A stretch of DNA of 64,000 nt from Syntrophorhabdaceae bacterium (GCA_963666485.2 CAXXUO010000002.1:128001-192000), one strand, 5' to 3'; shown: positions 3,000 through 17,573, numbered from the stretch's first letter. Made by a program: numbers and translations. The notes: a model not told the origin generated them from the sequence alone.

Positions 3000-4490
3000 C
3001 TATCGCGGAACTACCTGTTTGCGAGCCTTCTTCGCCTCTTCTATCGCATCGAGTTGGAGCCGGTAGGCGCTGTAGTACTTGAAGATGTTGCGTACATATG
3101 TTGTGGTCTCCATACCGACCTTTTCGGCTGTGACGACCTCGACGTTGTTGAGCCACTGGTTCGGGTCAAACCCGCGGCGCTCGGCCTCCTTGCGCATCGC
3201 CGCGATCTTTCCCGGGCCGCAATTATAGCTCGCAAAGGCAAACAATGTACGGTTGTTCCCGGTGAATTTGGCATCCGGGAAGTACTTCGTCATGAGGCGG
3301 TCCATGTACTTCGCACCGGCGTGGATGTTGGGCTCGGTAATGCTGATATCACCCACCTTCAATTCCTTGCCGGTGGACGGCAGGAGCTGCATGACGCCGA
3401 TGGCCCCCGAGCGGCTCTTTGCCTTCTGGTTGAGCTGTGACTCCTGGTAGCCCTGCGCTGCCAGCATGAGGGGGTCGAAATCGTATTGCTGCCCGTACTT
3501 CCGGAAGAGAGCAAGGATCTCCTCGAAACGCTTCCACTCCGAGGCACCCGTCGGGTCTTTTATCTGTTTCACCCGGGACATGTACTTTTTCAGCCGGATG
3601 GCCACGAGACCCTGCTTCTGGAGATGGTTCTGCGCGAAGTCGAGGATCTCCGCTTCCAGTTTCGGGCTCCCCTTTCGAATGGCCCAGCCCGTCTTGCCGC
3701 TTTCCCTGGCAACCGCCTGCTGGTTCACCTTGATCTTCGGAAGGATCTGTGCCCACATCTTCGCTTTCCAGTCATCTACCACGATGATCTCGAGAATGCC
3801 GGCATTGACCATCTCCATCAAGTCCTCGTCTTCCAGTGCATCGGGCACAAGTACCAGTTTCACGGCGGACTTGCGCTCCTTCTTAAAACGGGCGTTGAGC
3901 TCGTTGAGGCTCTCATAATAGCTCGATGCCTTCCGGACGTGGACTGTCTTGTCGGCAAGGTCGTCCGTGGAGGCGATCGCGGGGGACTTCGGCCCGGTGA
4001 CGATCAATTCTCTTATACCGGGCTGTTTGGCCGGCGCGACAAAATCCACCGTCTTGAGGCGCTCGGCGGTCATGGTGAGGTTGCCCACGGCAATGTCGCC
4101 CAGGCCGCTTACAACCTCCGGCAGCAGTTTGTCCCGGGTCGTGGGGATGATGAGGACGGTGACCGGGCGCCTGGCCAGCGTCTTCGCATACTTCCTGTTG
4201 ATCCACCGCTCGAAATCGCGGACGTTCTCGGCGGTAATTCCCATCTCGTGCCCGTTGTCGTTAAAATAGAGAGACCGGCTGTACGGCACGAGCACCCGGA
4301 TCACGCGGCGCTCCAACATCTGATCGAAGTCTTTCGTGAAGGGCGTACGGGATATGTCCAGCTGGCGCGCACTTTGCTTCGCGCCCGGTTTGGACGAGGC
4401 GGCGGCGCATTCGCCGGATAAGCCCATGATCAGAACCAGAAAAAAGATGAACCCGATCATAAGCTCCAGCATCCGGTATTTGGCCTTCAT
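3000..4490 (-). CDS. MltF-like lytic transglycosylase (substrate-binding domain plus SLT domain)
   Basis: PBPb-type N-terminal half; SLT motifs QGYQESQL, GAIGVMQL, ASYNCGPG and ETTTYVRNI. Confidence 0.9.
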   Translation of the reverse strand: MKAKYRMLELMIGFIFFLVLIMGLSGECAAASSKPGAKQSARQLDISRTPFTKDFDQMLERRVIRVLVPYSRSLYFNDNGHEMGITAENVRDFERWINRKYAKTLARRPVTVLIIPTTRDKLLPEVVSGLGDIAVGNLTMTAERLKTVDFVAPAKQPGIRELIVTGPKSPAIASTDDLADKTVHVRKASSYYESLNELNARFKKERKSAVKLVLVPDALEDEDLMEMVNAGILEIIVVDDWKAKMWAQILPKIKVNQQAVARESGKTGWAIRKGSPKLEAEILDFAQNHLQKQGLVAIRLKKYMSRVKQIKDPTGASEWKRFEEILALFRKYGQQYDFDPLMLAAQGYQESQLNQKAKSRSGAIGVMQLLPSTGKELKVGDISITEPNIHAGAKYMDRLMTKYFPDAKFTGNNRTLFAFASYNCGPGKIAAMRKEAERRGFDPNQWLNNVEVVTAEKVGMETTTYVRNIFKYYSAYRLQLDAIEEAKKARKQVVPR

Positions 4491-4620
4491 CCGCTCCCCT
4501 CCAAAATGGACTTACTTGTGTCTTACCACACTTAAACCGTGGACACAACCCGGAAACACCCATTATAGACCTCTGTCGGAATACTCGAAAATCGAAGCCG
4601 CCGATAAGCGCCCGGCGAGA

Positions 4621-6774
4621 TCACTTGAGCGAGAGGAGGTGGGTGCGAAGGTTGGCTTTTTTGTTGTTCAGGCCAAGTTTCTTCCGTATGTTGTCCCTGT
4701 GGGAATCGACAGCGCTTGGCGCCACGCCCATTAACCGTGCTATATCCTTCGTCGTCTTCCCCTCCCGTATGAATGACACCACCTCGGTCTCCTTCGGCGT
4801 CAGGCCAAACTGTTTTATCATGTTCAAAAAGGGTGACAGTATCTCGGCGAGGTTCGCCTCGACGACGTTGAGATAGGCCTCATGGCGGGGGGTTAGCTGC
4901 TCTTTTCTTATCTTCCGTATATGGGGCAGGATCATTGTCCTGATGTTCGACACGAACTGGACTTCGAGCTCTTTCCTGTCCTCTTCCCTCTGCTTTAACA
5001 ACACCCTGAGGGCGGTGTTGACCTCTTCGAGGGTTTTGGATTTGACCGACAATTCGTTCTCCCGGTCCTCTCTCCTGGCAATTTCCTCGCGAAGTTCGGC
5101 CGTGCGCTCCGCCACAAGCTGTTCAAGGTGCTCGCGGGATGCTCTTAATTCCTCCTCCATCTTCTTCCGTCCGGTAATGTCCCGATCGGTACCCCGATAC
5201 CCTTTGAGGTCTCCGGCGGCATCGTAAAAAGGAAGGCCATCCGTTTCCAGAACGACAAGGTGTCCGTCTTTATGAACGTTGACATTTTCCAATGCGACCA
5301 ACGGTCTCTCTTTCTTTGCGAATACGGCGAATACTTCCGTCATCCGTTTTGCTTCCTCCGGGGCCATGAGATCAAACGCTGTCTTGCCGAGGACCTCTTC
5401 CGGTTCATATCCGAGTATGTGTTTGATCTGCGGGCTGACGTAGGTATACCGTCCCGCGCGGTCAACCTCCCAGACCCAGTCATACACGGTCTCGACCAGG
5501 CCCTGGAATTTCTGTTTACTCTCCCAGAGCTCTTCTTCGGCCTGCTTGCGGGCCGTTATGTCCTCCGTGAAGCCTTCGTACACCGCCGGTTTGCCCTGAT
5601 CGTCGTAAACCGTCCTGCAGTTCGTGGAGACCCACGCAATGCTTCCGTCTTTCCTGTATATCTGAAATTCAAAGTCGTCGAGCTTCCCTTCCCTGTCCAG
5701 GATGGAAAGGGCCTCCTGCCTTTTGGCCGGGTCAACGTAACTCTGGGTCCCGATATCCGTTATGGAGCCCATCATCTCTTCCGGTGAGTCGAACCCGCTG
5801 ATCCTGGCAAATGCCGAATTAATGGTGAGGAGCCTGCCGTCGGGGGATGACCGGAATATGCCCTCCAGCGCGTTGTCGAAGATGGAGCGGTACATGGCCT
5901 CGGCCCTTCTGCGGTCGGTAACGTCCGTCCCCACGCCGAAAAAATAATCCGGGCTGCCATCGGGTTTTTTTATGGCCCTGCCATGCCATTCCACCAGGAC
6001 CTCTTTTCCGTCTCTTGTAAGGACCCTGTTCTCGTTGAATGTAGGCTGCGCCAGGGTTATCAGTCTGGAGAAAACCGGTGAAAGCCTTTCTCTGTCGCTC
6101 TCGGGCACCAGCCTCATATAGTCCTTGTTCTTCACTTCCTCCAGGTTGTATCCAAGGGCCCCGAGCATTGATGCGTTCATATGCCTGACCGTACGATCGG
6201 CATTGATCGCTACGAAAAAAGCCGGGGACGATTCGACAAGGGTCGAATTGAACGCTATTTCTTTGAGCAGGGCCTCTTCCATTCGTTTTTGCCGGGTTAT
6301 GTCGCGGACGACGGCTTGCAGGAGAGGTCTGCCGTCTATGATCATAGGGCTCAAAAACACTTCCGATGGAAATACCTCACCCGTATCTGCCCGCTTATGC
6401 GCCCATTCAAATTGCTGTGGCCCCGTTGTCAATGCCATAGCTATGTGGCGATCGCCCAACACCCTCGATTCGGTACCGCAGGCCTGAACGGGCGGGGACA
6501 GGTCGGCGGGGTGTATCCCGCACAACTCTTCCCGTGTCGCACAGCCGAACAGCCTGACGGCGGCACCGTTGCAGTCGAAAAAGTGATCCCGGTCCATGAG
6601 CAGCACCGCGTCGCTGGTAGAATCGTAGAGGGTGCGGAACTTCATTTCGGAACGCTGCAGCGCCTCCAGGGTTTTCACGTGCGCCGTTTCCGACTGTTCC
6701 AGTTCACTGATCCTCTGTTTCAGCAGTGATATTTCCTCGACTATTTCCTCGCGTGTCCGGGACGGTTCTTTCAT
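4621..6774 (-). CDS. Multi-PAS, LuxR-type HTH transcriptional regulator
   Basis: Four PAS/PAC repeats ending in DIT/DVT-R; C-terminal LTPKETEVVSFIREGKTTKDIA...VDSHRDNIRKKLGL. The start is likely ATG 6774 (MKEPSRT) rather than 6885. Confidence 0.9.
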   Translation of the reverse strand: MKEPSRTREEIVEEISLLKQRISELEQSETAHVKTLEALQRSEMKFRTLYDSTSDAVLLMDRDHFFDCNGAAVRLFGCATREELCGIHPADLSPPVQACGTESRVLGDRHIAMALTTGPQQFEWAHKRADTGEVFPSEVFLSPMIIDGRPLLQAVVRDITRQKRMEEALLKEIAFNSTLVESSPAFFVAINADRTVRHMNASMLGALGYNLEEVKNKDYMRLVPESDRERLSPVFSRLITLAQPTFNENRVLTRDGKEVLVEWHGRAIKKPDGSPDYFFGVGTDVTDRRRAEAMYRSIFDNALEGIFRSSPDGRLLTINSAFARISGFDSPEEMMGSITDIGTQSYVDPAKRQEALSILDREGKLDDFEFQIYRKDGSIAWVSTNCRTVYDDQGKPAVYEGFTEDITARKQAEEELWESKQKFQGLVETVYDWVWEVDRAGRYTYVSPQIKHILGYEPEEVLGKTAFDLMAPEEAKRMTEVFAVFAKKERPLVALENVNVHKDGHLVVLETDGLPFYDAAGDLKGYRGTDRDITGRKKMEEELRASREHLEQLVAERTAELREEIARREDRENELSVKSKTLEEVNTALRVLLKQREEDRKELEVQFVSNIRTMILPHIRKIRKEQLTPRHEAYLNVVEANLAEILSPFLNMIKQFGLTPKETEVVSFIREGKTTKDIARLMGVAPSAVDSHRDNIRKKLGLNNKKANLRTHLLSLK

Positions 6775-7039
6775 CTCAATCTTCCTGTGGTTGTGATTCA
6801 CGATACGGGCCAAAAGGCCGAGCCTGCAATGCTGCGGCTGCACCGGCCTTCGTCGCCTGCCCGTCACATTTTCCTGCACTTTCATTCAATTTGCAAGGGG
6901 TAATCCCGGGATGGGATCATCGAAATCAGGATCCGGGCCACGTCTTGCATTATCGCATTTCACCTGTGCAAGATTGCCGGTCGCGCCGGGAAAGCTTAAA
7001 AGGTCTGCCGATAATTAGCTCAAGAAAGATTCCTTGACG

Positions 7040-7300
7040 TCAGGACTTCCCGATAAGAATATCGTGCAAATTGATGACCGCCATGGCGATCTGGGAGTTG
7101 TCGACGAGAAAGGCGATGTTTATTTCGGATGCGCTCTGGGAAACCATCCCGGCCTTGATCCCCGCTTTCCCGAGAGCGGCGAAGATATCGACTAGGCCTT
7201 TCGGGTTCCCCTTCAGCTCTTCCCCGCAGAGACCGGATGAGCCCGGTACGGTCACTTTTCACATCTTTCGTATATCCAATATCCCGGCGATATGCAATAT
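7040..7300 (-). pseudogene. Remnant of an aspartokinase-type C-terminal ACT domain
   Basis: ...GLCGEELKG...IFAALGKAGIKAGMVSQSASEINIAFLVDNSQIAMAVINLHDILI matches the aspartokinase ACT pattern. The upstream part (DVKSDRTGLI) lies in another frame and no kinase domain is present. Confidence 0.65.
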
Positions 7301-7400
7301 AAATGTCCGGGAAACGTATCGAACATCTGCCAAATAAGAAAGGCAACCGTCTCCGGCTGCCTCCTTTGTTGTCAGATGAAATGATCTCGCGCTGACGGCC

Positions 7401-7856
7401 CTACTCCTTGTAAACGCCGCATCCGAACACGTAGTCACCGACTTTTTCAACGTAGGTGGTTTTCGCGTCTGTCTTTTTCGTCACCGGATTCGCCCATTTA
7501 TAGTCTACCCAGCCGGTGCCTTTTTCAGTTGCGGTCTTGATGATCTCCTGCATGAAGAGCTTGCCGTCGGCGTCTTTCAACCCCGACACGTCCTTGCCGA
7601 CAAGCTTGGGATTCCCGCCATGGGCAAAGACCATACCTTTCGCATCGATGACAAAGATATAGAGATCGCCTTTCACAAACTGCCCTTTCGGGTCTGAGAA
7701 TTCAGCAAACGCCTTGTCCTTGCCGTTGGCCTTGTAGAACGCCACCCCTTTTTCTATGAGGGCCTTCGCTTCGGCCTGGGTCCCGGCACAGAACCCCGTC
7801 CCTACGAGACCGAACAGAAATAAACCTGCCAACATCATCACTACAAGCTTTCTCAT
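7401..7856 (-). CDS. Stand-alone periplasmic single-Cache (sCache_2) protein
   Basis: Signal peptide; GDLYIFVID, AHG, LKDADGKLF and GWVDYKWANP motifs; RBS GGAGG. Confidence 0.9.
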   Translation of the reverse strand: MRKLVVMMLAGLFLFGLVGTGFCAGTQAEAKALIEKGVAFYKANGKDKAFAEFSDPKGQFVKGDLYIFVIDAKGMVFAHGGNPKLVGKDVSGLKDADGKLFMQEIIKTATEKGTGWVDYKWANPVTKKTDAKTTYVEKVGDYVFGCGVYKE

Positions 7857-8005
7857 TCCAAAACCTCCCCTTTGATTGTTTTGTGTTCCCTGTCAGAGGC
7901 CGAAAGGCTGCAACGCCATCCGGATAAAGTTATAGACAGGGTCCCAATAAACGATGTTATCATACTCGCAGTATAAAACAAACCGTTATCCCGTCAGGAG
8001 GTGCC

Positions 8006-8275
8006 ATGAAAAAATTATCATGTGGGGCTGCTGCATTCTTGATCGCTTCGGCCTTTGCTGTCGCCGCACCCGTAGTAGAGAAGCCGCTTTTTGGGGCGGA
8101 GGAAAAGGTGCCCGTCTCGACCGGGGCCCCCGTCAAGGCAATGAAGCAGCAGCCTCCCAAAACCCAGGGGGCGGCCGGTGCCGCGGCAAACACCGACGCA
8201 GCGAAGAACAAGGCGCAAGGCGGTAAGAAGAAAGATACGAGGATTGAGGACGATCCGATAGGGACAAGGAGATAA
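8006..8275 (+). CDS. Small secreted Lys/Ala-rich protein
   Basis: RBS AGGAGG; signal peptide MKKLSCGAAAFLIASAFAVA; low-complexity mature part. Confidence 0.7.
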   Translation: MKKLSCGAAAFLIASAFAVAAPVVEKPLFGAEEKVPVSTGAPVKAMKQQPPKTQGAAGAAANTDAAKNKAQGGKKKDTRIEDDPIGTRR

Positions 8276-8329
8276 AGCGGGGACGTCCGATGTTCCGTTC
8301 GAACATCCGCCGGGTAAACGAAGGCTATT

Positions 8330-9073
8330 TCATCCCTTCTGTTTATCAGCCGCTTCCGACGCCTTCTTGAGAGCGTTAAGGAATGCCCCGTAATACTTTT
8401 CCGCCGTGTCGCCGGGCAGCGCCTCGTCCTTATCACGCAAGGCATATATGTCTTTCAGCGCGTCCCCGTCGAGACCGAATACGCGGGCCGAGGCCTCGAT
8501 GATCTGCGAATGCCCTGTCACGCCGTTCCCTGTGACCGCGAGGAGGAACCCCAGCGTTTCGACAAAGCGCTTTACCTGCTGAGACATCATCACGGTGAGC
8601 CGCTGCCCCCCGTTCAGGATGTAGTGCCTGCGCATCTTGAGAAGCATGTTGCTCAGGCGCTGTCTCAAGCGGACCATGACGTTCTGGCTGTCTATGCTCA
8701 GGCCCGCAAGGGGATCCTCACCGTAGAGCACCCGGTAGCCGTCCCTGATCGCCATGAATTTCAGGGGGAATATATCCACGCTGGCGGCGATATCGTCAGG
8801 CGTCAGGAAGAGCGGCGCGATGCCCGACCGTCTTCCCTTGAAAACGGGGTCGAGAAGAGAGTGCAAGGCTGAGATGTCGGCATTCCCGACGACAACGAGA
8901 AGATTGATGTCGCTCTTCCCGGGACGGTAGTCGTCACGCGCGGCGCTTCCGTACAGAACGAGCGACTCGAGTGATATCCCGGGGATCTTCTGAATATCCT
9001 CGAGGAATGATGCGACCGCGGTCTTTTCCTCTGTACCCAATTGTGTTCCGGACAGGTCTATGTCTTTGCTCAT
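8330..9073 (-). CDS. Nucleotidyltransferase-domain protein
   Basis: LYGSAARDDY...SDINLL (polymerase-beta-type GS...DxN motif) followed by a helical C-terminal domain. Starts 9 nt after the radical SAM stop. Confidence 0.82.
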   Translation of the reverse strand: MSKDIDLSGTQLGTEEKTAVASFLEDIQKIPGISLESLVLYGSAARDDYRPGKSDINLLVVVGNADISALHSLLDPVFKGRRSGIAPLFLTPDDIAASVDIFPLKFMAIRDGYRVLYGEDPLAGLSIDSQNVMVRLRQRLSNMLLKMRRHYILNGGQRLTVMMSQQVKRFVETLGFLLAVTGNGVTGHSQIIEASARVFGLDGDALKDIYALRDKDEALPGDTAEKYYGAFLNALKKASEAADKQKG

Positions 9074-9082
9074 CTTAACCTC

Positions 9083-10210
9083 TCACGTAAATATCTGCGG
9101 GGCCTTCCCGGTACCCGCAGGTTCCGGGGCGTATGCCGTCACCGCTGCCTCAACATAGCAGCCCGGGTCTTTCCTGAAGGGGTCCCCGGTGAGCGCATAG
9201 GAAAGACACCTCAGGCCCCCTCCACATAACCGTTCGTAAAAACAGCCGCCGCATCCTTGGGCCGCTTTTTTCCTGTCCCGCAGCGCAACGAAAAGGGGGC
9301 TTTCCCTGTAGATCTCCGTAAGGGGCCGGTCGAGAACGTTTCCCGTGCGGACGGGCATGCGCCTGCAGGGAACGACATCACCGTTGGCCATGACAGTGAT
9401 CAGCGTGTCACCTGCTGCGCACCGGTAGGGCTCGCCCCCTCCCGCGAGGAACTGCAGGGCCCGGTCCATGGCGATCTCAGTGCGGCACATGGGGTTCCTT
9501 CGGGCCTTCTCTTTAATCTTGAGGACTGCCGAAAAAAAGTCACGGACCTCGCCGGGGGAAAGGACCTCATCCTCGAGCGGCGCACTGCCGCCGCAGGGGA
9601 TGAAACGGTCCGTCCAGACCTTCGACACGCCGAGTTTCATTCCGAGCTTCGCAACATCGCCGAAGCACCGGTAGTTCCGGCGCGTAGCCGTGAAAGATAT
9701 CAGCGTCCTGGTCCCGTTGTCACCAAGATGGCCTATCGCGCGGGAGATCCTCTTGAAGTCGCCCGGCCCCCGTATGCTGTCGTGGGTAGCCTCGTCACCG
9801 TCGATGCTCACCTGGACGAACCTCGGCCCGAGGGACGCAAGGCGCCGGGCGGCTTTCGCATCGAGAAAGCTGCCGTTTGTCAGGACGGCAAAGCTGAATG
9901 CGTCCCTGCGGGCATGGAATTCCTCGAGGAGCTCCCAGATGTCGTCCCGTACAAAAGGCTCCCCACCCGTGAGGTTGATGTGCCCGGGGGGCCCGTTGCC
10001 GGCCGCTGTCAGGTCGCAGAACTGGTCCGTTATCGCGACAAGTTGTTCGCCGTTTAGCTCCTGCGCTCCGTCCCGGTCCTGGTAGCAGTGAATGCACCTG
10101 TTGTTGCACCGCTCCGTTATGTGCCACTGGAGGAGCATTCTGCGACCCGGCGGACGGCCTTTCGCCCGGGCCGCCTTTAAGCGGTCATGATACGCTTTTA
10201 CCCGCCGCAT
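9083..10210 (-). CDS. Radical SAM/SPASM-domain protein (peptide/protein maturase-like)
   Basis: CNNRCIHC (CxxxCxxC), TGGEP, TNG and SIDG...HDSIRG; SPASM cysteines in CAAG...GDVVPC...CGGC...CGGGLRC...DPGC. The start is uncertain (ATG 10210 overlapping the upstream stop, or ATG 10138). Confidence 0.92.
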   Translation of the reverse strand: MRRVKAYHDRLKAARAKGRPPGRRMLLQWHITERCNNRCIHCYQDRDGAQELNGEQLVAITDQFCDLTAAGNGPPGHINLTGGEPFVRDDIWELLEEFHARRDAFSFAVLTNGSFLDAKAARRLASLGPRFVQVSIDGDEATHDSIRGPGDFKRISRAIGHLGDNGTRTLISFTATRRNYRCFGDVAKLGMKLGVSKVWTDRFIPCGGSAPLEDEVLSPGEVRDFFSAVLKIKEKARRNPMCRTEIAMDRALQFLAGGGEPYRCAAGDTLITVMANGDVVPCRRMPVRTGNVLDRPLTEIYRESPLFVALRDRKKAAQGCGGCFYERLCGGGLRCLSYALTGDPFRKDPGCYVEAAVTAYAPEPAGTGKAPQIFT

Positions 10211-11103
10211 CCGCCGCACCCCCCGCATCCGCCACCGCCGCCGCTGCATCCGCTGCCGCCGCTGCATCCGCCGCAGGCACTTCCCGAGGACGATTTCTTG
10301 AAGGCGGCATGAATTTCTTCGTACATAGGGGTGCCCGTCAGGGCGGCCGCGCCGAATATGGCGACCGCATAGGCCGGGTCTATCCCCTCCGGCGCGCTTC
10401 TCGTTCGCAGCCAGTCAAAGTGTTTTTCCAGTTTCGCGAGATACTGTCTGCCGAGCCAGCTGGCCCTGCCCCATGGCTTGAGCATCAGGGGGACGAGAAC
10501 GAAAGAGAAGACCATCAGCATGAAGAGGAAGAACACCGGTTTTCCGAAAGAAATACCGAGTACGAATTTCGAAACACCGGTCACGACAAGAATGATCATA
10601 AGGACCCAGAAGATCAGCCAGCCCTGTTTCTCCTCCGATGCGTTCTTGACGAGCCGGTTCTGCGCAAGCTCCTGGTAATTGTACAGGGACAGTCTTTCCA
10701 CGTCCTTGCGTATCTCCTCAAGTTTAAAGAGGTTCCTCGTATACAACTTCATCTTTACATGATCATAGACGGAGCGGGGAACGGGCTTCAATGTCTGGAG
10801 CCTGGCCAGGCGGTCCGGCTCGCTGAGGCCTGTCCTCTTGACGGAGGCCAGGTCCTTCTCGCCTTCGATCTCCACGAGCCCCTTGTTCAGGAGATCGAAA
10901 ACTGCCGTCTTGACGGCCTCCTTCCAACCCCCTTTCAGGAACGATATCGTCACGGGGTCGAACCTCGTCAGGTTGGGCATGGGCGCGCCCCTGCTGCTGT
11001 CGGACCCCATCATCACCCGGCCGACAAGGACGCATGCCGCCGCCAGGCACACGTAAAGAAAGAGAAAGGTTGGTCCCGGTATGGATCGCAAGAATTCAAG
11101 CAT
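10198..11103 (-). CDS. TIGR04222-like membrane protein with a Cys/Gly/Ser low-complexity C-terminal tail
   Basis: N-terminal GPTFLFLY; ISFLKGG...AVFDLL..GLV; a TM hairpin (KFVLGISFGKPVFFL); AVAIFG; tail SSSGSACGGCSGGSGCSGGGGGCGGCGGCGG. The likely start is ATG 11103, overlapping the upstream stop. Confidence 0.85.
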   Translation of the reverse strand: MLEFLRSIPGPTFLFLYVCLAAACVLVGRVMMGSDSSRGAPMPNLTRFDPVTISFLKGGWKEAVKTAVFDLLNKGLVEIEGEKDLASVKRTGLSEPDRLARLQTLKPVPRSVYDHVKMKLYTRNLFKLEEIRKDVERLSLYNYQELAQNRLVKNASEEKQGWLIFWVLMIILVVTGVSKFVLGISFGKPVFFLFMLMVFSFVLVPLMLKPWGRASWLGRQYLAKLEKHFDWLRTRSAPEGIDPAYAVAIFGAAALTGTPMYEEIHAAFKKSSSGSACGGCSGGSGCSGGGGGCGGCGGCGG

Positions 11104-12814
11104 TGCCCGATCTTCCTCCCGCGGAGATATAATATACGGTGTCGCCCGGGTACACTGCCGCGTGGCCCCGTCCGAACCTGATGCCCCCTTCCCTTCCCTT
11201 GACCATGAGCACCCTGTCCCGCAATCCTTCGAGGACAGTTTCGAAGGCCCCGGCGTCACCAACCTCGGTGCCCGAAATAAAGATCTTTCCCGCAGGACTG
11301 TCGAACGCGTTCATGACATCGCTGTTCAATGCCGCCGATGCGAAGGCTGCGGCCGCAATGTAGGAGGAACTGACGGCGTCGTCTATCGCAAAATTTTTCC
11401 GTATCATGCGGGCGAAATCCTCGTCGAAGATCCTCAGGACCGTCCTGATGCCGCCGTTCGTCGCCGCCGCGTTCAGCCCGGCCTCGAGGTTCGTGAGATC
11501 GTTGTCGGTGGAGCATATTATCGCTTTCGCGCGCCCTGTGCCGGCATGGGCCAGGGAATCCTCCAGCACGGCGTCTGACACGATGAACGGGATGCCCATG
11601 TTCCTGAGTCTCTGGACGAACCTGTTCTGCGGGTTCTTCTCGACGACCACCACATTCTCCCCGAGTTCGACAAGATTCTCGAGTATCCTTGCCCCGACAT
11701 CCCCGAGGCCGCAGAGGATGATATGGTCCTTGACGTGCATCTTCCGCCTGCCCATCAGCATTTCGAGACGTTTCTTGATCATGCTGTCCGTGATGAAAGC
11801 GAACAATATGGCCATAAGCATGGCCCCGGAGAGCATGAGGACGATTCCGACGATCTTGGAAATGGTCGATGAGTCGCGCAGGCTGATATCGCCGAAGCCG
11901 ACGGTTGTGAGGACGGTCACGACAAAGTAAACGGCATTGATGAAGCTCAGTTTCTCGACTGCGGCGAAGAAGAAGACGCTGAAAATGAGTATGCCCAGGA
12001 GAGTGACGAGGGTAGAGAAGAGCACCTTGTCCGACAGGAGAAGGTGCGGCCTGAACCTGAATTTCTTCTTTGTCCCGTTGCTTCTTTCGTCCGGACTGCG
12101 CGGACTAATGCCGTTGAGCGTCTTCGCCCCCGCAAAGGATGAGAAGCACAGGACCCGCGCGTCGTTCCCTATTTCCGCGTCCCTGCCGGGACAAGCGGCC
12201 CCGTCGATAGCGACTACCCGGACAGCGTGTACGGCTTCAACCTCGCCGGCACTTCTTTCGCTTCCCCCGGTCAAGGCCACGCCTTTCACCTCGTAAAACG
12301 TGTATGTCTCTTTGTCGACTTTGAACGACAGAACGGAATCCCGGACCAATGCGGAAACCGCGAAGCTCGGCGTCGCGACCTGCGACACGCTGATAGCGCG
12401 CACGCCGGGAATCCTCTTTTCAAGCTCCCCCGCGAACTTCATGTTGAAGACCCGCACGACGATCCTCATGCCGGGATTGATTTCGTTGACCCTCATTGCC
12501 GCGTGTATATTGAACTGGTCATCCTCGGAGGGAAATATGATGGACCCCGCTGAACGAAGGTCCAGGTGGTTAAGGGTATCGAGGCTGTTCGTGTCGGCCG
12601 TGACGACGAGGACCCCGGATAACCTCGTCTCCCCGAGAAGCCGCGAATGTTCCCGCGCGACGACGGTGACAGGCACCCCCGCCTCGACGAGGAATTCCAT
12701 GATCCTGAACCCGGCATTGGAAAGGCCGTAGATGATGACACGCCCGTGCCCTTCCTTGCCGGCGCCGGATGCCGCTTTGCCGTCAACCGCGTTTTGGTCC
12801 AGTATAACCCCCAC
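11096..12814 (-). CDS. Potassium-channel-family protein with two TrkA-N/RCK domains
   Basis: Selectivity filter TVLTTVGFGD between two TM helices; Rossmann motifs IYGLSNAG and ILCGLGDVG. Confidence 0.9.
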   Translation of the reverse strand: MGVILDQNAVDGKAASGAGKEGHGRVIIYGLSNAGFRIMEFLVEAGVPVTVVAREHSRLLGETRLSGVLVVTADTNSLDTLNHLDLRSAGSIIFPSEDDQFNIHAAMRVNEINPGMRIVVRVFNMKFAGELEKRIPGVRAISVSQVATPSFAVSALVRDSVLSFKVDKETYTFYEVKGVALTGGSERSAGEVEAVHAVRVVAIDGAACPGRDAEIGNDARVLCFSSFAGAKTLNGISPRSPDERSNGTKKKFRFRPHLLLSDKVLFSTLVTLLGILIFSVFFFAAVEKLSFINAVYFVVTVLTTVGFGDISLRDSSTISKIVGIVLMLSGAMLMAILFAFITDSMIKKRLEMLMGRRKMHVKDHIILCGLGDVGARILENLVELGENVVVVEKNPQNRFVQRLRNMGIPFIVSDAVLEDSLAHAGTGRAKAIICSTDNDLTNLEAGLNAAATNGGIRTVLRIFDEDFARMIRKNFAIDDAVSSSYIAAAAFASAALNSDVMNAFDSPAGKIFISGTEVGDAGAFETVLEGLRDRVLMVKGREGGIRFGRGHAAVYPGDTVYYISAGGRSGNA

Positions 12815-13023
12815 TCTCGTACCGGAGAATCGATGTGTCAGCGAGCCAATTGTATCACACTGCTTTCATTTGTTGAACGGATAATTTTGAAGGCAGGAAA
12901 ACCCCGGGGGCGCATACTGATAATGCCCGCGCGCCCCTGTTAACACAGGCGATCATCGCTCTTTACTTTTTCACCCGTATGATGTAATAATCCTCGACTT
13001 GATGTGGAAGGTGAACAGAACAA

Positions 13024-13920
13024 ATGACGTTATCAGCTAAAGTAAAAAATATTTTCATCTCTACAAGGCCATGGTCATTCACCATGTCCCTCATATCGGT
13101 TTCCATCGGTACGCTCCTCGCTGCCCAGGAGGGCCCCGTTTCCTGGTTCTGGTTTGCCCTCGTTTGCATAGGAATAGTGTCGTTTCACGCAACTGCGAAT
13201 GTCCTGAACGATTATTTCGATACGAGATATAATGTAGACCAAAAGGATTCCCCGACCGCGCGCTACAGGCCTCATCCGTTGATCGGCAATTTACTCACGC
13301 CCCGGCAGCTCCTCGTTGAAGCGTTTATCCTGTTGGCCATTACACTCGGCATAGGGTTCACCATCTCCGGGATGCGGTCGATCACCGTGTTGTGGATCGG
13401 GCTTATCGGTGTCGCAACAAGTGTTTTCTATACCGGGTGGCCGATAAAATTTAAATATTCCGGCTGGGGCGAGATATTCGTCTTTCTCATGTGGGGCCCC
13501 CTGATGTTTGAGGGAGCCTACGTCGTTCAGCGCCAGGTATTGTCCGGCAAGGTATTCCTCGTATCGGTCCCGTTCGGGGTGCTCGTGGCGCTTGTGCTGC
13601 TGGCGAATAACATTCGGGATATCGCATATGATTCGCGGCAGCGCATACGAACTGTCAGTATATTGCTCGGCCCTCGCCGGTCGATCATGCTGTATGCGGC
13701 GCTCATTGTGACCGCGTACGTATTTACGGCTCTCATCGTTGCTATCGGCGTCCTGAGCCCCTGGGCGCTCCTGGTCCTCATCTCTTTACCGAAAGCGATC
13801 AAACTGCTCAGGGAATTCATGAAGAAAGTGCCGGAAGCAGCCGATGCAAACACCGCGCAGTTGAACACAATTTTCGGCATTCTCCTGATCATTGCCCTCA
13901 TCCTGGAGAAGGTGCTTTAA
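13024..13920 (+). CDS. menA: UbiA-family prenyltransferase, MenA (DHNA octaprenyltransferase)-like
   Basis: TRPWSF, NVLNDYFD, YT..P..FKY.GWGE and NNIRDIAYD motifs; multiple TM segments. Confidence 0.8.
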   Translation: MTLSAKVKNIFISTRPWSFTMSLISVSIGTLLAAQEGPVSWFWFALVCIGIVSFHATANVLNDYFDTRYNVDQKDSPTARYRPHPLIGNLLTPRQLLVEAFILLAITLGIGFTISGMRSITVLWIGLIGVATSVFYTGWPIKFKYSGWGEIFVFLMWGPLMFEGAYVVQRQVLSGKVFLVSVPFGVLVALVLLANNIRDIAYDSRQRIRTVSILLGPRRSIMLYAALIVTAYVFTALIVAIGVLSPWALLVLISLPKAIKLLREFMKKVPEAADANTAQLNTIFGILLIIALILEKVL

Positions 13921-14528
13921 TGGCGGTCGTCGGCGCAATCGTTCTTGCATTCGTTTGCTGGGCTTTTACCTTTGGCCTGCCGCAGGGGAATTTCTGGGTC
14001 AAGATAGGCCTGTCCGTGGTAATTGTGACCGCATATTCTCTCTGGTGGCAGCGTCCCGTGATCGCACTGCGCTGGCGCTCTTTTCTGCTCGGGGCGATCT
14101 CTGCAGTCATACTCTATTTTATATTCTATGCGGGCAACATTCTCTCCGCGTTTATTTTCTCGAATGCCGGCCGCCAGGTAGGCGGCATCTACGGTCTCGG
14201 GCACGGGACGAACCATCTTTGGATATTCCTTTTGCTGCTCTTGGTCACCGGGCCCGGCGAAGAGATATTCTGGCGCGGTTTTCTCCAATCAAAATTGATG
14301 GACCGCTTCGGAAAATGGCCGGGTTATTGTATCGCGACAGGGGTCTATGCGGCCGTGCACGTATTTTCGGGGAATATCATCCTCATCGGGGCCGCATTGG
14401 TAGCGGGAATGTTTTGGGGTGCAATGTACATGTGGCGCAGGGACCTGTTCATGCAGATCATCTCACACTCTTTGTGGTCGAGTTTTATATTCGCAGTCAC
14501 TCCCATCACACCGGCTATACATCAATAA
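13920..14528 (+). CDS. CPBP (Abi/CAAX) family intramembrane metalloprotease
   Basis: EEIFWRG, YAAVH and IISHSLW motifs; TAATG overlap with the upstream gene. Confidence 0.88.
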   Translation: MAVVGAIVLAFVCWAFTFGLPQGNFWVKIGLSVVIVTAYSLWWQRPVIALRWRSFLLGAISAVILYFIFYAGNILSAFIFSNAGRQVGGIYGLGHGTNHLWIFLLLLLVTGPGEEIFWRGFLQSKLMDRFGKWPGYCIATGVYAAVHVFSGNIILIGAALVAGMFWGAMYMWRRDLFMQIISHSLWSSFIFAVTPITPAIHQ

Positions 14529-14559
14529 AATTCAAACCGGATAACGGATCGCATGGTTA

Positions 14560-16674
14560 TCAGAAATTACTTTCGCGGAGGATGACGTCGTATATCCTTT
14601 GAAGAAAGCCCGCCATGGCGCTTCTTCGCTTGGCTTTTATGCCGGCAACGCCTTTCAGGCGCAGCGCCGGGACGCCCGGGGGATCGCACGAGGCGAGGCG
14701 CACGCGGAAAACGGGCTGCAGCGGCCGGATAAGGCCCTTTGGATCGGCCTGGGCGGGGATCGGCCCCGAATACGGTGAAGCGAGGGAGGGCTCCTCGAGG
14801 GCGGCCAGGTTGACTTTATCGATTGCCGCAACGCGGCAGGTGAACGTCCCGAAACCGGCGCCGTCCGGGATAAAAGTGGCTTTGTTGCCTATCGCGATCC
14901 TCTGGAGCTCGGAGCCGTTGACGAATGCGTCGACCTTGTTCTCGGCCGGGTCTACAAGCACATAGAGCTGCTCGCGCGCCGGGATGAAAAGGCCCGGCCT
15001 GATCTCGTCGTTGCGCGTCAAAATATTACCGTCGAACGGGGCACGCATCATCAGCTTCAACCATTCTTTTTCCAACCCGTCAAGGTTCGCCTTCGTTTCC
15101 TCGAACCTGTGCCGCAGGACCTCGCCCACGGCGAGCGCTTCCTCGTTGAAGGGCTGATGTTCCAGGTCCCAGCGGGACTGCGACTCGGACACCCGCGCCT
15201 GCCGGACCTTGTATTCGAGCTCCTGCGAGCGAAGGACCACCAGCACATCCCCTGCCCTCACACGGCCCCTGCCCTGTGCGGGCTCTTCCACGACCTCCGA
15301 CGGGTACGCGGCATAAAAGCCCTGTTCACGTGCCGCAGACATCATGGCCGGTGCCGTTATCCGGCCCGACCAGGGGATGAGGAAGACGATGATGAAGGCA
15401 AGGGTGGCGCACGCCGTCCTGAAGATCGTGTAATTGAGCTTCATGCGGAAACGAAGGTCGACCCATGTTCTCACCTCGCGATACACGGGCTGCAGGATAA
15501 ACCACCACATCTCGACTGAAAAAAGGATGATCCCGAGCATTTTGAAAAAATACCGGTAGACGAGGATGGCGATCCCCAGGAAGATAAAAAAACGATAGGC
15601 CCAAACGACATAGGAAAAGACAATGAGGAACTTCCGGTATGCGTCGGGCATGGGTTCCGGCGGCGGGTCGTCGAACCCGAAAAGTATTTCGCGGAGCCAC
15701 CACCTGCCGAAGGCAAAGGAACGTGCATGCAGGTTCGCTATCCCCAGGAAGTCGGACAGGATAAAATAGCCGTCGTAGCGGAGAAAGGGGCTGGCGTTCA
15801 GAAGAAGCGTCATGACCCATGACGTGGTGGCGAGGACGAACGCGCCCGACCGCAGCACCCCGTCAGGCAGGAACACCCAGGCCCAGGTGGCAGCCACGGC
15901 AAGCAGGAGTTCGGTCGCCATGCCGGCGGCCCCGACCGCCAGGCGCTTATGCCTGTCCTGAAGTTTCCACACCTCGTTGGTGTCCGTGTAGAGCATGGGG
16001 AACAGAACGACGAACACGATGCCCATCGCCGGGATCTTGCACCCGTACCTGTGCGCGGTCACTGCGTGCCCGAACTCGTGCGCCGTCTTGGCGATGGACA
16101 CCGCGACCGCCGTTGCGGCGATGCCTTCCCACGTCCTGTATATGGCAAGCGAGTGGCGGAATACGTCCCACTGGCGCGAAATGACATAGAGGGCGAGCAC
16201 TGCGGCCGCCAGGGCGAGGGTAAGGAACCACTGGCTGTACATGAAGGTGACGCGACTGGCGAATGCATCGAGGACCTTCTGGGGCTTAAGCAGCGGGACC
16301 CGGAAAAAAAGATAGTTCTTGAGCAGCGTCATCATCCAGGAAACACGCATTGCCCGAAGCCCTGCGAGGGCCCGGATGCTTCCTTTCGTTTCGACCAGGT
16401 AACTCTGCTCCAGGAACAGTGCTATGTGGGCTATGTCTTCATGGGTGACCGTGAGGGTCGTTTCACGCGCGAGGGCACCGACAACGAGGTCGGACCTGCC
16501 GAGGTCCCATCGCGAAAGGATCTCGAAGGCCTGCCAGTTCAGCTGGTAAAACCTGTTTGCCGAGGGATCGTGGAGCGTCCATGTCCGGCTTCCGTCGGCC
16601 GCGGACGGCGCGGGGTAAATGGCGAGTTCCTGCCGCAAAGGGGGGAGATTGAAAGGTTTCACCAGCCTAACCAT
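14560..16674 (-). CDS. M50 peptidase-domain / HlyD-type adaptor fusion protein
   Basis: HEFGH zinc motif and NASPFLRYDGY; N-terminal LPPLRQEL...WTLHDP; C-terminal coiled coil plus APFDG. Confidence 0.9.
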   Translation of the reverse strand: MVRLVKPFNLPPLRQELAIYPAPSAADGSRTWTLHDPSANRFYQLNWQAFEILSRWDLGRSDLVVGALARETTLTVTHEDIAHIALFLEQSYLVETKGSIRALAGLRAMRVSWMMTLLKNYLFFRVPLLKPQKVLDAFASRVTFMYSQWFLTLALAAAVLALYVISRQWDVFRHSLAIYRTWEGIAATAVAVSIAKTAHEFGHAVTAHRYGCKIPAMGIVFVVLFPMLYTDTNEVWKLQDRHKRLAVGAAGMATELLLAVAATWAWVFLPDGVLRSGAFVLATTSWVMTLLLNASPFLRYDGYFILSDFLGIANLHARSFAFGRWWLREILFGFDDPPPEPMPDAYRKFLIVFSYVVWAYRFFIFLGIAILVYRYFFKMLGIILFSVEMWWFILQPVYREVRTWVDLRFRMKLNYTIFRTACATLAFIIVFLIPWSGRITAPAMMSAAREQGFYAAYPSEVVEEPAQGRGRVRAGDVLVVLRSQELEYKVRQARVSESQSRWDLEHQPFNEEALAVGEVLRHRFEETKANLDGLEKEWLKLMMRAPFDGNILTRNDEIRPGLFIPAREQLYVLVDPAENKVDAFVNGSELQRIAIGNKATFIPDGAGFGTFTCRVAAIDKVNLAALEEPSLASPYSGPIPAQADPKGLIRPLQPVFRVRLASCDPPGVPALRLKGVAGIKAKRRSAMAGFLQRIYDVILRESNF

Positions 16675-17573
16675 TGCCTGAGGGCGGTCAGGGGGCGGCG
16701 GAAAATATAGTACGCCAGTATCACCCTCTTCCCGTAGATCTTTGCGATACCCGTTAATCCGACGCGGGGCGGAGCCGACCCGTCCGCGAGAAAATCAGCT
16801 TTGAGGCGATACGCGACAAGGCCCGCCGGGGTAACCTCGGATTTATACGAGGCGTACGTGAGCCGGCCGTCCCGCGGCCGCTGCGGATCGGAGGTGAGAT
16901 AGAGTGTCACCTTTGTCCCCTGCTGAAGCGCGATAGCGTCGGCCACCGGAAGGAAGATGAGCATCTCGACATTCGCCGGGTCGGCGATGACGACGATCCT
17001 TTCTCCGACGGACACGCTTTTCCCTATCCAGTCATTGGCGTCCGCGAATACGGCGATGCCGTCGCGGGGCGCCTTCACCTCTATCTTGTCGAAGAGGTTC
17101 CGGGAAAACGCAAGCTCGGCTTCCCTCCCCTGCATCTTGCCCTGGCTCGACTCTATCGAGGACCGCGCTTTTTCGTCCTCGATCGCCATCTGTGACGTTT
17201 GCCTGTATACCTCGGCCGCGACCTGGTATGCCTTCGAGGCGACCTGCAGGCGCGTCTCGAGGTTCGTCCTGTCGAACTCGAACAGGACCTGCCCTTTTTT
17301 CACCTCTTCGTTCGGACGAACACGGAACTTGAAGATGATCCCTTCGAGGGGCGAGCGGACGACGAGAGGGTCCCTCGGGGCCACCTCCGCGGGGGCCTGC
17401 ACGGATAGCCGCACGGGGAGCAGAAAAAAGACCAGGATGGCAATGGCGACAGCCGCCTTGCGCTTTGGCGTTCCCAGCTTCTCTTTCACCACCCGGATAT
17501 ATTTGCGGGGAGGCGCGAGGGCCTTGAAGCCGTGTGCATAGATGGAGGCAAGTTCCCTGTAACACATAAACAA
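16659..17573 (-). CDS. HlyD-family adaptor subunit, probably 5'-truncated
   Basis: VRSPLEG, a coiled coil, APRDGIAVF and YYIFRRPL. Begins abruptly at ELASIYAHGF with no clear RBS. Confidence 0.8.
   Translation of the reverse strand: MFMCYRELASIYAHGFKALAPPRKYIRVVKEKLGTPKRKAAVAIAILVFFLLPVRLSVQAPAEVAPRDPLVVRSPLEGIIFKFRVRPNEEVKKGQVLFEFDRTNLETRLQVASKAYQVAAEVYRQTSQMAIEDEKARSSIESSQGKMQGREAELAFSRNLFDKIEVKAPRDGIAVFADANDWIGKSVSVGERIVVIADPANVEMLIFLPVADAIALQQGTKVTLYLTSDPQRPRDGRLTYASYKSEVTPAGLVAYRLKADFLADGSAPPRVGLTGIAKIYGKRVILAYYIFRRPLTALRQWLGW

Follow-up and report, generated by a model that had tools for sequence, protein, structure and literature searches.

A radical SAM/SPASM enzyme family linked to Gly/Cys-rich protein tails, and a candidate tail-maturation locus in a Syntrophorhabdaceae bacterium

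Three adjoining genes and their products

The stretch of DNA analysed here, referred to as the window, comprises 64 000 nt from Syntrophorhabdaceae bacterium (GCA_963666485.2, CAXXUO010000002.1:128001-192000), whose genome is 99 % complete. On its minus strand lies a compact row of three genes, encoding a membrane protein with a Gly/Cys-rich C-terminal tail (T), a radical S-adenosylmethionine (SAM) enzyme of the SPASM type (R) and a nucleotidyltransferase-fold protein (N). The three probably form a dedicated maturation module, in which R acts on the Cys residues of the Gly-Cys-Gly repeats in the tail of T. An initial annotation of the same DNA had described T and R as a candidate modification system resembling those for peptides made on the ribosome and then modified post-translationally (RiPPs); it had missed N, the third conserved gene at 8330-9073. 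Open reading frames (ORFs) were called mechanically, and the features at the locus are as follows.

10198..11103, minus strand: T, TIGR04222 / DUF2207_C membrane protein, 301 aa plus stop codon (TIGR04222, PF20990, AlphaFold2 model)
10201..10293, minus strand: tail of T, SSSGSACGGCSGGSGCSGGGGGCGGCGGCGG, 31 residues, the proposed substrate core (read from the DNA)
9083..10138, minus strand: R, radical SAM/SPASM enzyme, 351 aa from the ATG at 10138 (PF04055, PF13186)
8330..9073, minus strand: N, ANT/AadA-type two-domain nucleotidyltransferase-fold protein, 247 aa (PF01909, AlphaFold2 model, Foldseek)

R begins 59 nt beyond the stop codon of T, at MLLQWHITERCNNRCIHC, and N starts 9 nt after the stop codon of R. 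With these two gaps, and with the start of T overlapping the gene upstream by 8 nt, the operon contains no separate short precursor gene, in agreement with the initial annotation.

The ORF of T spans 10198-11262, and the ATG at 11103 was the start that fitted the alignment of orthologues, giving a protein of 301 aa. Its C-terminus, ...KKSSSGSACGGCSGGSGCSGGGGGCGGCGGCGG, followed by a stop codon at 10200-10198, was read directly from the DNA, which confirmed the count of six Cys in 31 residues given previously; the remainder of the tail is Gly, Ser and Ala. T matched TIGR04222 at 103.5 bits (cut-off 43) over profile positions 2-228 of 229 and Pfam family DUF2207_C (PF20990) at 36.1 bits (cut-off 33), and was the sole TIGR04222 match in the genome. 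Its transmembrane segments and its uncharged low-complexity C-terminal tail are likewise those of a TIGR04222 protein. The overall architecture consists of three clear transmembrane helices, a domain of ~115 aa that would be cytoplasmic by the topology reading below, a short conserved hydrophobic helix with the motif DPAxxxAxFG and a disordered tail. In the AlphaFold2 model (predicted local distance difference test score, pLDDT, 86.4) helices were placed at residues 10-33, 155-185, 191-208, 243-255 and 259-269, and residues 273-301 had pLDDT values below 50. Foldseek found no match for T in the PDB at E≤0.001 (best E 0.47, TM-score 0.15), and the impression that the soluble domain may resemble winged-helix units comes from its predicted secondary-structure string.

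The topology of T was read from hydropathy and the predicted model. A common order was shared by 39 T sequences: a first transmembrane segment (TM1), a domain of ~130 aa, a hairpin of TM2 and TM3 joined by a short loop, a Lys/Arg-rich region, a weaker hydrophobic segment and an almost uncharged tail. In sequences called with a fourth segment, the loop after TM3 contained 6-9 Lys/Arg in 30-43 positions; in those without such a call, the whole post-TM3 region contained 7-15 Lys/Arg. The positive-inside rule would therefore put the soluble domain and the post-TM3 region in the cytoplasm, together with the tail provided that the fourth segment is not membrane-spanning. In the AlphaFold2 model the fourth segment is just 13 residues long (243-255) and is followed by an amphipathic helix (259-269), behind transmembrane helices at 10-33, 155-185 and 191-208. 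A tail facing the cytoplasm is thus the favoured prediction for this subfamily of T, and a tail so placed would be accessible to a cytoplasmic Fe-S enzyme.

The start of R is uncertain. Conservation across the R family begins at MLLQWHITERC, the ATG at 10138; the alternative in-frame ATG codons at 10210 and 10228 would overlap the codons of the tail, and a 100 %-identical database protein of 381 aa fits a start at 10228. The earlier description of a complete radical SAM/SPASM gene next to T, with its outer coordinate at 9083, proved correct. R scored above the cut-offs of PF04055 (67.1 bits against 29.5) and PF13186 (35.6 against 21.5), the CxxxCxxC motif (C13/C17/C20) and the GGEP motif (G60-G61-E62-P63) were each present in 80/80 family members, and the seven SPASM Cys residues (C242, C260, C298, C301, C307, C313 and C329) were kept in 76-80 of the 80. 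At the level of sequence these features place R in the radical SAM superfamily and its SPASM subfamily, with cluster binding predicted. R had no Pfam match to a PqqD-family or RiPP recognition element (RRE) domain and starts 12 residues ahead of its CxxxCxxC motif.

None of the 69 NCBIfam families matched by R reached its cut-off. The best scores were for AhbD (144.9 bits, cut-off 500), TIGR04053 (142.9, 395), ACGX (128.6, 400) and GeoRSP (127.3, 400), with lower scores for NirJ (126.7, 515), SbtM (124, 350), MftC (116.1, 265) and PqqE (84.8, 381). For the maturases of sactipeptides and ranthipeptides the scores were 96.6 bits for StsB (cut-off 625) and 82.6 bits for PapB (cut-off 340), and in score, in RRE and in a short leader-bearing precursor R differed from the enzymes of that group (AlbA, SkfB, StsB, PapB and CteB). 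TIGR04463, the CrpC family, was absent from the best 25 of the 69 families. By sequence the nearest solved structure was PqqE (6c8v, E 8.1e-16). R had over a thousand database relatives at E≤1e-10; the 120 relatives listed were, apart from the three closest, 50-59 % identical to R.

To place R among its relatives, a set of 81 loci was used, consisting of the window and the best 80 of 161 confirmed related loci. The R tree comprised 86 rows, namely 80 R-family rows (the window, 78 of the 80 loci and genome G050) and six outgroups, with L067 and L079 excluded as too short; this and the other trees were quick maximum-likelihood searches, for which support is given as Shimodaira–Hasegawa-like approximate likelihood ratio test (SH-aLRT) values only. 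The window's genome contained ten SPASM matches, among them an AhbC gene (724.3 bits, cut-off 650) adjacent to an AhbD-like gene (439.5 bits, just under 500) and a gene for the anaerobic sulfatase maturase anSME (484.5 bits, cut-off 349), all elsewhere in the genome. A branch with SH-aLRT 95 parted the R family from the Ahb and anSME genes, and two outgroup rows were not separated from the base of the family, namely the second radical SAM gene of G050 and a paralogue in the window's own genome. R is a member of a peptide-maturase-like family, not of a cofactor family, and is not AhbD, NirJ, PqqE or anSME; the grouping with NirJ, Ahb or PqqE enzymes that the initial annotation had named as the observation to look for on the opposite side was not found.

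The paralogue (L099:562-1800, plus strand, within G000:C1:759814-762993) is a second uncharacterized radical SAM/SPASM gene with a score profile like that of R (AhbD 153, GeoRSP 149, ACGX 145 and SbtM 113.5 bits). No Cys-rich ORF was seen within ±1.5 kb of it.

N, on the same strand as T and R, gave a borderline match to PF01909 (NTP_transf_2; 21.2 bits against a cut-off of 21). A phmmer search of the PDB returned no match at E≤1, and the ESM Atlas returned just 'hypothetical protein' clusters with partial PF01909 labelling. The AlphaFold2 model of N (pLDDT 94.2) matched AAD(9), AadA, ANT(4'), KNTase and Hailong HalB in Foldseek (E 8.4e-7 to 2.6e-4, TM-score 0.48-0.60, 12-18 % identity), with E 8.4e-7 and TM-score 0.59 for AAD(9) (6sxj). 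The TM-scores of 0.56-0.60 against AAD(9), AadA, ANT(4') and KNTase agree with a two-domain fold of the aminoglycoside nucleotidyltransferase (ANT)/KNTase type.

The signature of Pol-beta-type nucleotidyltransferases is usually G-S ... D-x-[DE], with two metal-binding carboxylates. In an alignment of 45 N sequences, Y41, G42, S43, A44, S54, N57 and P103 were invariant and D55 and D100 were conserved in ≥90 %, so that the signature of N reads G-S ... S-D-x-N, with Asn (N57) at the second metal-carboxylate position in 45/45 sequences in place of the catalytic D-x-[DE]. The invariant Asn extends to family relatives of ~246 aa at 24-30 % identity, which may be unlinked to R. Compared with the ANT-type enzymes AAD(9), AadA and KNTase and with HalB, N shares a Pol-beta-type domain with a helical bundle and has kept the G-S motif and the first Asp, but differs in its invariant Asn, in its conserved neighbours T and R and in having no tie to aminoglycosides or phage defence. 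N is either a tailoring nucleotidyltransferase or a nucleotide-binding partner that is possibly non-catalytic, because its second catalytic carboxylate is replaced by the invariant Asn.

The Gly/Cys tail is the constant partner of R

The linkage of R with the tail was followed across the 81 loci, of which the 80 related ones belonged to Thermodesulfobacteriota, Nitrospinota, Nitrospirota, Pseudomonadota (large sulfur bacteria), Chloroflexota, Planctomycetota, Verrucomicrobiota, Bacillota, Acidobacteriota, Myxococcota and several archaeal groups. Because the genomes compared are kin of one another, the counts given here are not independent, and homologues of T and N were detected with profiles (jackhmmer) built from the same loci as those counted. 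A tail was called by a composition filter on the last 30 residues of an ORF (≥2 Cys, ≥9 Gly and ≥20 small residues). An ORF with such a Gly/Cys tail was found in 59/81 R loci, and a T homologue was found in 50/81 when all ORFs were searched. The situation that the initial annotation had held to be incompatible with its proposal, namely that R orthologues mostly lack a tailed neighbour, is therefore not the one encountered. As the same kind of tail recurs in 59 of the 81 loci, it is not a chance feature.

The tails are uniform in composition. Among 60 tails drawn from the 59 loci, the Cys content had a median of 5 within the last 45 residues, and from the first Cys to the end the 1472 residues included 904 Gly, 314 Cys and 145 Ser. 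Cys was preceded by Gly in 291/313 cases and followed by Gly in 267/314, so that Gly flanks Cys on either side in 85-93 % of cases. Of 254 gaps between successive Cys residues, 76 were of 3 residues, 41 of 4 and 68 of 5, and 52/60 tails ended in CG+CG+ plus 0-2 residues.

Of the 22 loci without a tail by the filter, two had R at a contig edge, two (L006 and L042) had short peptides with GCGCG cores, two had a T whose tail was cut off or had one Cys, one had T elsewhere in the genome, two (L052 and L054) had a possibly frameshifted T and in the other 13 no such feature was seen. When five tail-less genomes were searched, T was found elsewhere in one and no T at all in the other four. Seven tail-less loci formed one divergent R clade, with 35-43 % identity. 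In the two Syntrophomonadaceae loci L052 (4644-4748) and L054 (4955-5059), a C.GCGGCGG string was observed in another frame at the start of R, which may be a frameshifted or mis-assembled tail of T.

Gene order was shuffled among the loci while linkage was kept, with the order T-R-N in nine loci, N-T-R in six, R-N-T in five and a convergent arrangement in one. N homologues were detected in 27/81 loci, scattered over the whole R tree, and N was absent from five loci taken from the phylum sample described below. After T, R and N, the next neighbouring gene cluster was common to just 9/81 loci.

The same tail was also found on proteins that the T profile did not detect, representing several unrelated carriers. 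These included a type-I membrane protein that has one transmembrane helix besides its signal peptide (L041:4188-4991), small membrane proteins of 87-136 aa (L043, L068 and L073), a protein of three transmembrane segments whose N-terminal CPxC...CPxC region is zinc-ribbon-like (L051:4069-4896) and, as a second tail ORF at its locus, a soluble protein of 403 aa without a hydrophobic segment (L010:7385-8626). In several of them the tail is predicted to lie inside the cell, as read from the signal peptide and single helix of L041, from the Lys/Arg residues right after the last transmembrane segment in L068 and L073 and from the absence of any transmembrane segment in L010. The tail, and not the carrier, is the constant partner of R.

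In one R clade (L006, L042 and G050/L097, together with L007 at a contig edge; SH-aLRT 95), R lies in classic RiPP-type clusters, with one to three tandem peptides of ~50 aa directly upstream of R. These peptides have GGCGCG-type cores and share a leader of the form ...Y.EP.V.ATYSKEELEDAI.PHG..., and none of them matched an NCBIfam model. They are located as follows.

L006:4160-4925: three tandem ORFs for short GGCGCG-core peptides, upstream of R
L042:4551-4799: short GGCGCG-core peptides, upstream of R
L097:4761-4979: short GGCGCG-core peptide, upstream of R

L006 and L042 have a common row of downstream genes, which in a scan of L006 comprised an HprK-related kinase, an S26-like peptidase, two PqqD-family chaperones and a second radical SAM enzyme. 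The short peptides look like an undescribed RiPP class served by the maturase family of R. Together with the varied carriers, they are the strongest argument that R works on the Gly/Cys motif.

The association was also examined in samples of 401 genomes of the window's phylum and 401 genomes of Pseudomonadota. In the window's phylum, T was found above the cut-off in five genomes and an R orthologue (E≤1e-60) in six. All five T genes adjoined R on the same strand, in four taxonomic families, and the sixth R (G050) had a short Gly/Cys peptide in place of T. Neither T nor R was found in a genome of the same genus as the window (G377); in a DNA search of window positions 3000-17000 against that genome, just parts of the PAS/LuxR regulator gene matched, at 75-81 % identity, a divergence too great to map an insertion. 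In Pseudomonadota, T was found above the cut-off in 17 genomes, and R adjoined T in four of them, lay on another small contig with ends fitting adjacency in one and lay elsewhere in one. In the tree of T, 40/43 members of the R-type T clade had R in the genome, and the three without R had 0, 0 and 2 tail Cys, although these are small numbers from related genomes. The absence of R in Pseudomonadota was judged at E≤1e-30. A second T clade lacked R altogether and is located as follows.

L130-L135 and L139 (genomes G764, G646, G716, G791, G635, G650 and G688): R-less T clade

The co-occurrence of R with Cys-rich tails that the initial annotation had suggested checking across genomes is thus borne out within the R-type T clade and does not extend to this R-less clade of seven, which keeps Cys-rich tails.

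Several other genes lie near the three. Upstream is a K+-channel-like gene (11096-12814, minus strand) with an Ion_trans_2 and two TrkA_N domains, whose 3' end overlaps the start of T by 8 nt; it is preceded by a promoter-like site at 12876-12849 (consensus match only) and may head the operon. A K+-channel-like homologue was found near R in only 4/81 loci. Downstream of N, beyond a gap of 470 nt, is a gene for a secreted single-Cache protein of 151 aa (7401-7856, minus strand), followed by a terminator-like site at 7364-7339 (consensus match only), and within the gap, on the opposite strand, is an ORF of 89 aa with a signal-peptide-like start (8006-8275, plus strand). Further on is a gene for a multi-PAS protein of 754 aa, whose C-terminus looks by eye like a LuxR-type helix-turn-helix (4621-6885, minus strand). 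No link was seen between the module and the Cache, multi-PAS or 89-aa genes.

Proposed chemistry and rival explanations

That R modifies the tail at all is quite likely, judging from gene context and by analogy. In the proposed mechanism the tail would be a RiPP core and the rest of T its membrane-anchored carrier. R, a radical SAM enzyme in which two auxiliary SPASM clusters are predicted and an RRE for leader binding is lacking, would act on the Cys residues of the tail. It would bind the tail, possibly at an open iron in auxiliary cluster I, abstract a hydrogen atom and oxidize each G-C-G unit; in the CrpC report (PMC13692751) a seven-Cys SPASM count is read as leaving one iron open to a substrate Cys. 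The favoured guess is that Cys and the preceding Gly carbonyl are oxidized in two steps, with loss of four electrons, to a thiooxazole-type heterocycle, and the outcome would be a metal-chelating tail made without oxygen. N would be an accessory in a third of the loci. Between the two fates initially offered for the tail, retention and release, retention fits better, as no protease or exporter was seen in T-type loci and the tail is read as cytoplasmic; the modified product would most likely stay on T, on the membrane's cytoplasmic side.

Given that R modifies the tail, a thiooxazole-type heterocycle is tentatively the leading chemistry, by analogy with characterized enzymes, at somewhat less than an even chance. 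It is ranked first because Gly before Cys is nearly invariant, because SbtM, the sole radical SAM enzyme known to act at a Gly-Cys site, makes this product (PMC9204691) and because the oxidative enzymes dependent on multinuclear non-haem iron (MNIOs) that are linked to T lie near makers of thiooxazole or oxazolone-thioamide (PMC12452194). Small-ring thioethers from Cys-S to Gly-C-alpha (sactionines) are the runner-up, possible with a lower probability. The fullest version of the proposal, an oxygen-independent, protein-anchored metallophore, is rather unlikely as a whole: in it R would make a string of heterocycles (or Gly-C-alpha thioethers) on the cytoplasmic tail of T, and the ANT-like D-x-N protein would bind or nucleotidylate the metal- or redox-active tail.

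When the complex of R and whole T was predicted, the median score was 0.57, compared with 0.00 for the best of three controls, which supports an interaction weakly. In a benchmark of this score, that mark was reached by 116/157 solved complexes and by 2/215 mismatched pairs; among those that reached it, just 18 of the 157 solved complexes but both of the mismatches scored ≤0.60. The runs agreed in at least 31 % of contacts, and partner pLDDT was at least 74.

Several observations weigh against a dedicated tail-modifying module, or against particular parts of it. In 13/81 R loci no candidate substrate was seen. The R-less T clade (SH-aLRT 99), with seven Pseudomonadota members that have no R in the genome, has Cys-rich tails ending in CGGCGG, which indicates that such tails can persist without a dedicated neighbouring enzyme. 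The sequence scores of R favour no particular chemistry, SbtM (124 bits) being no closer than AhbD (145) or TIGR04053 (143). The cytoplasmic location is challenged by the fourth segment of T, which is transmembrane-like in hydropathy (Kyte-Doolittle 1.6-2.3) in about half of the sequences, and by the tails of other T subfamilies, which have been proposed to be periplasmic (PMC12452194). N has an Asn in place of the catalytic Asp/Glu and is missing from two thirds of the loci. The idea of R as the oxygen-free counterpart of MNIO rests on PMC12452194 and not on the samples used here, in which MNIO genes were found beside R in 0/80 related loci (tblastn, with some of the ten MNIO queries probably being mis-picked ORFs) and beside T in 0/17 Pseudomonadota T loci (within ±5 kb, or as far as the contig end).

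An MNIO as alternative partner of this T found no place at the locus. Cys tails of TIGR04222 proteins have been proposed as substrates of bufferin-like MNIO enzymes, and the T-linked MNIO enzymes are close to the bufferin/oxazolin enzymes, which convert Cys to thiooxazole or oxazolone-thioamide (PMC12452194). No PF05114 (MNIO) match was present in the window's genome, whereas the Caulobacter control genome did match, and membership of an MNIO-TIGR04222 system was ruled out, with no MNIO gene beside T. In the phylum sample MNIO was found in eight other genomes, never alongside T. Six of the seven genomes with R-less T each had one MNIO gene, far from T and next to DUF2063 in a bufferin-type operon (6/6); the idea that genomes with T have either R or MNIO was dropped, all six being in ordinary bufferin-type operons.

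The most credible of the rivals to the heterocycle, though itself unlikely, is that R installs Cys-S-to-carbon thioethers, as sactionines to Gly C-alpha, with small rings per C-G-G(-G) repeat that would turn the tail into a rigid, protease-resistant knot on a membrane protein. Thioethers are the commonest known job of SPASM enzymes on Cys-rich cores, and R has a seven-Cys SPASM motif as in the thioether-forming CrpC, which crosslinks a whole 28.8-kDa protein at a short repeated motif (PMC13692751). The short and regular Cys spacing noted above (3, 4 or 5 residues in 76, 41 and 68 of the 254 gaps) would suit such rings. R also matches StsB and PapB weakly (96.6 and 82.6 bits), but these scores are far under the cut-offs (625 and 340), and known sacti- and ranthisynthases have an RRE that R lacks. 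Sactipeptides have a separate donor half and acceptor half; the tails have no such division. The strict Gly before Cys (291/313) is unneeded for a thioether but matches the Gly-Cys site of SbtM. Ranthionines, linked to the beta or gamma carbon, are impossible in tails of Gly and Cys only, such as those of L029 and L049, and were excluded. The earlier claim that the enzyme crosslinks the tail stands as regards a dedicated, conserved enzyme-tail pair (59/81 loci and 5/5 genomes of the phylum sample with T), with thioether formation now one of at least two options.

An unmodified tail, acting as a flexible thiolate ligand for a metal or Fe-S cluster while T serves R as anchor, as cluster or electron donor or as regulator and R has some other substrate, is improbable; metal or Fe-S binding by an unmodified tail had been named in the initial annotation as an outcome that would contradict its proposal. 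It would account for the terminal CGGCGGC, whose C-x2-C-x2-C spacing is that of ferredoxin-type cluster motifs, and for the whole T clade that has Cys-rich tails without R in the genome and without any enzyme gene beside T. It would not account for the presence of the same R family in RiPP clusters with short leader-bearing peptides of the same Gly/Cys core, nor for a tail that follows R onto unrelated carriers, one of them soluble. Members of the R-type T clade without R (three) have lost most or all tail Cys, and no other candidate substrate gene is conserved by R, the next cluster occurring in 9/81 loci.

Very improbable, finally, is that R is a cofactor enzyme of the AhbD, NirJ, PqqE or MftC type or an anaerobic sulfatase maturase that stands beside T by chance, as could be read from its best NCBIfam match (AhbD, 144.9 bits) and its nearest solved structure (PqqE 6c8v, E 8.1e-16), since its scores are far below the cut-offs (AhbD 500, NirJ 515, PqqE 381, MftC 265), the genome has its own AhbC (724 against 650), AhbD-like (439.5 against 500) and anSME (484.5 against 349) genes elsewhere, the tree branch with SH-aLRT 95 parts the R family from these genes, and adjacency to a tail recurs in 59/81 loci from more than ten phyla.

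Relation to known systems and significance

The closest precedent for the carrier is the MNIO-TIGR04222 pair (Microb Genom 2025, PMC12452194), which has the same carrier family, an unstructured Ser/Gly tail with Cys and a tail proposed as the substrate of a neighbouring RiPP-type enzyme. The enzyme there is an oxygen-dependent MNIO, whereas here it is an oxygen-independent radical SAM/SPASM enzyme; the tail there is predicted to be periplasmic, whereas here it is read as cytoplasmic, and the modification of T by MNIO is itself a proposal. The main text and the two supplement files of that report mention no radical SAM partner of TIGR04222. No paper was found that pairs TIGR04222 or DUF2207 with a radical SAM enzyme, and no NCBIfam model fits R.

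As a precedent for the chemistry, SbtM (TIGR04082) makes a thio(seleno)oxazole at a conserved Gly-Cys motif (PMC9204691). SbtM and, as proposed, R have in common a radical SAM domain with SPASM clusters, action on Cys or Sec in a Gly-Cys motif and independence of oxygen, and the putative substrate of R has the same Gly-Cys context (291/313). The product of SbtM is the heterocycle of the bufferin-type MNIO enzymes, which use oxygen, and SbtM was taken as a model for R since both kinds of enzyme give the same heterocycle. SbtM differs in its substrate, a short selenopeptide, whereas that of R would be a membrane protein. R was rejected as a member of the SbtM family itself, with 124 bits against a cut-off of 350; just positions 200-515 of the 516 in the profile match (316 positions), and an N-terminal region of ~200 aa is missing.

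For a whole protein as substrate, the comparison is CrpC-CrpA of Methanococcus voltae (TIGR04463; ACS Bio Med Chem Au 2026, PMC13692751), in which a SPASM enzyme likewise acts on an entire Cys-rich protein, at a short C-terminal motif that is repeated, in a RiPP-like cluster without an obvious protease or exporter and with a suspected role in metal binding. CrpC has an RRE and makes ranthionines at C-x-x-Q/D, whereas R is without an RRE and the acceptors available in the tails are limited to Gly and some Ser; the consulted part of that report does not call CrpA a membrane protein.

Among uncharacterized radical SAM/SPASM families, the ACGX (TIGR04340), SynChlorMet and GeoRSP cassettes are comparable, with ACGX and GeoRSP among the best scores of R but with their 400-bit cut-offs missed by a wide margin. 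The partner peptides of ACGX are Ala-Cys-Gly-x repeats, close to the G-C-G repeats of the tails. The cassette of the short-peptide R clade, with its PqqD chaperones, peptidase and second radical SAM enzyme, resembles SynChlorMet.

RiPP-type enzymes are usually thought of as makers of small secreted peptides. What is proposed here is of a known kind, namely the RiPP-type maturation of a protein by a radical SAM enzyme; new are the tail of a membrane protein as the putative core, the lack of an RRE, the likely cytoplasmic location and the ANT-like D-x-N partner. Whole-protein cases of RiPP-type modification are few, those named in PMC13692751 being QHNDH, MCR, the E. coli ribosome and CrpA.

One R family, spread over more than ten bacterial and archaeal phyla, appears to serve three kinds of substrate that have the Gly/Cys core in common, namely tails of membrane proteins, small membrane anchors and free peptides, and so represents a natural experiment on substrate recognition without an RRE. 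If the proposal is true, free RiPP peptides and whole membrane proteins alike are substrates of a single maturase family, and anaerobes and microaerophiles of many phyla would have a radical SAM counterpart of the MNIO-TIGR04222 and bufferin systems. If a string of thiooxazoles is formed, the copper- or metal-buffering chemistry of aerobic MNIO enzymes would reach into anoxic habitats and onto the membrane face turned to the cytoplasm. The proposal would also give the widespread TIGR04222/DUF2207-type proteins of unknown function a first testable role.

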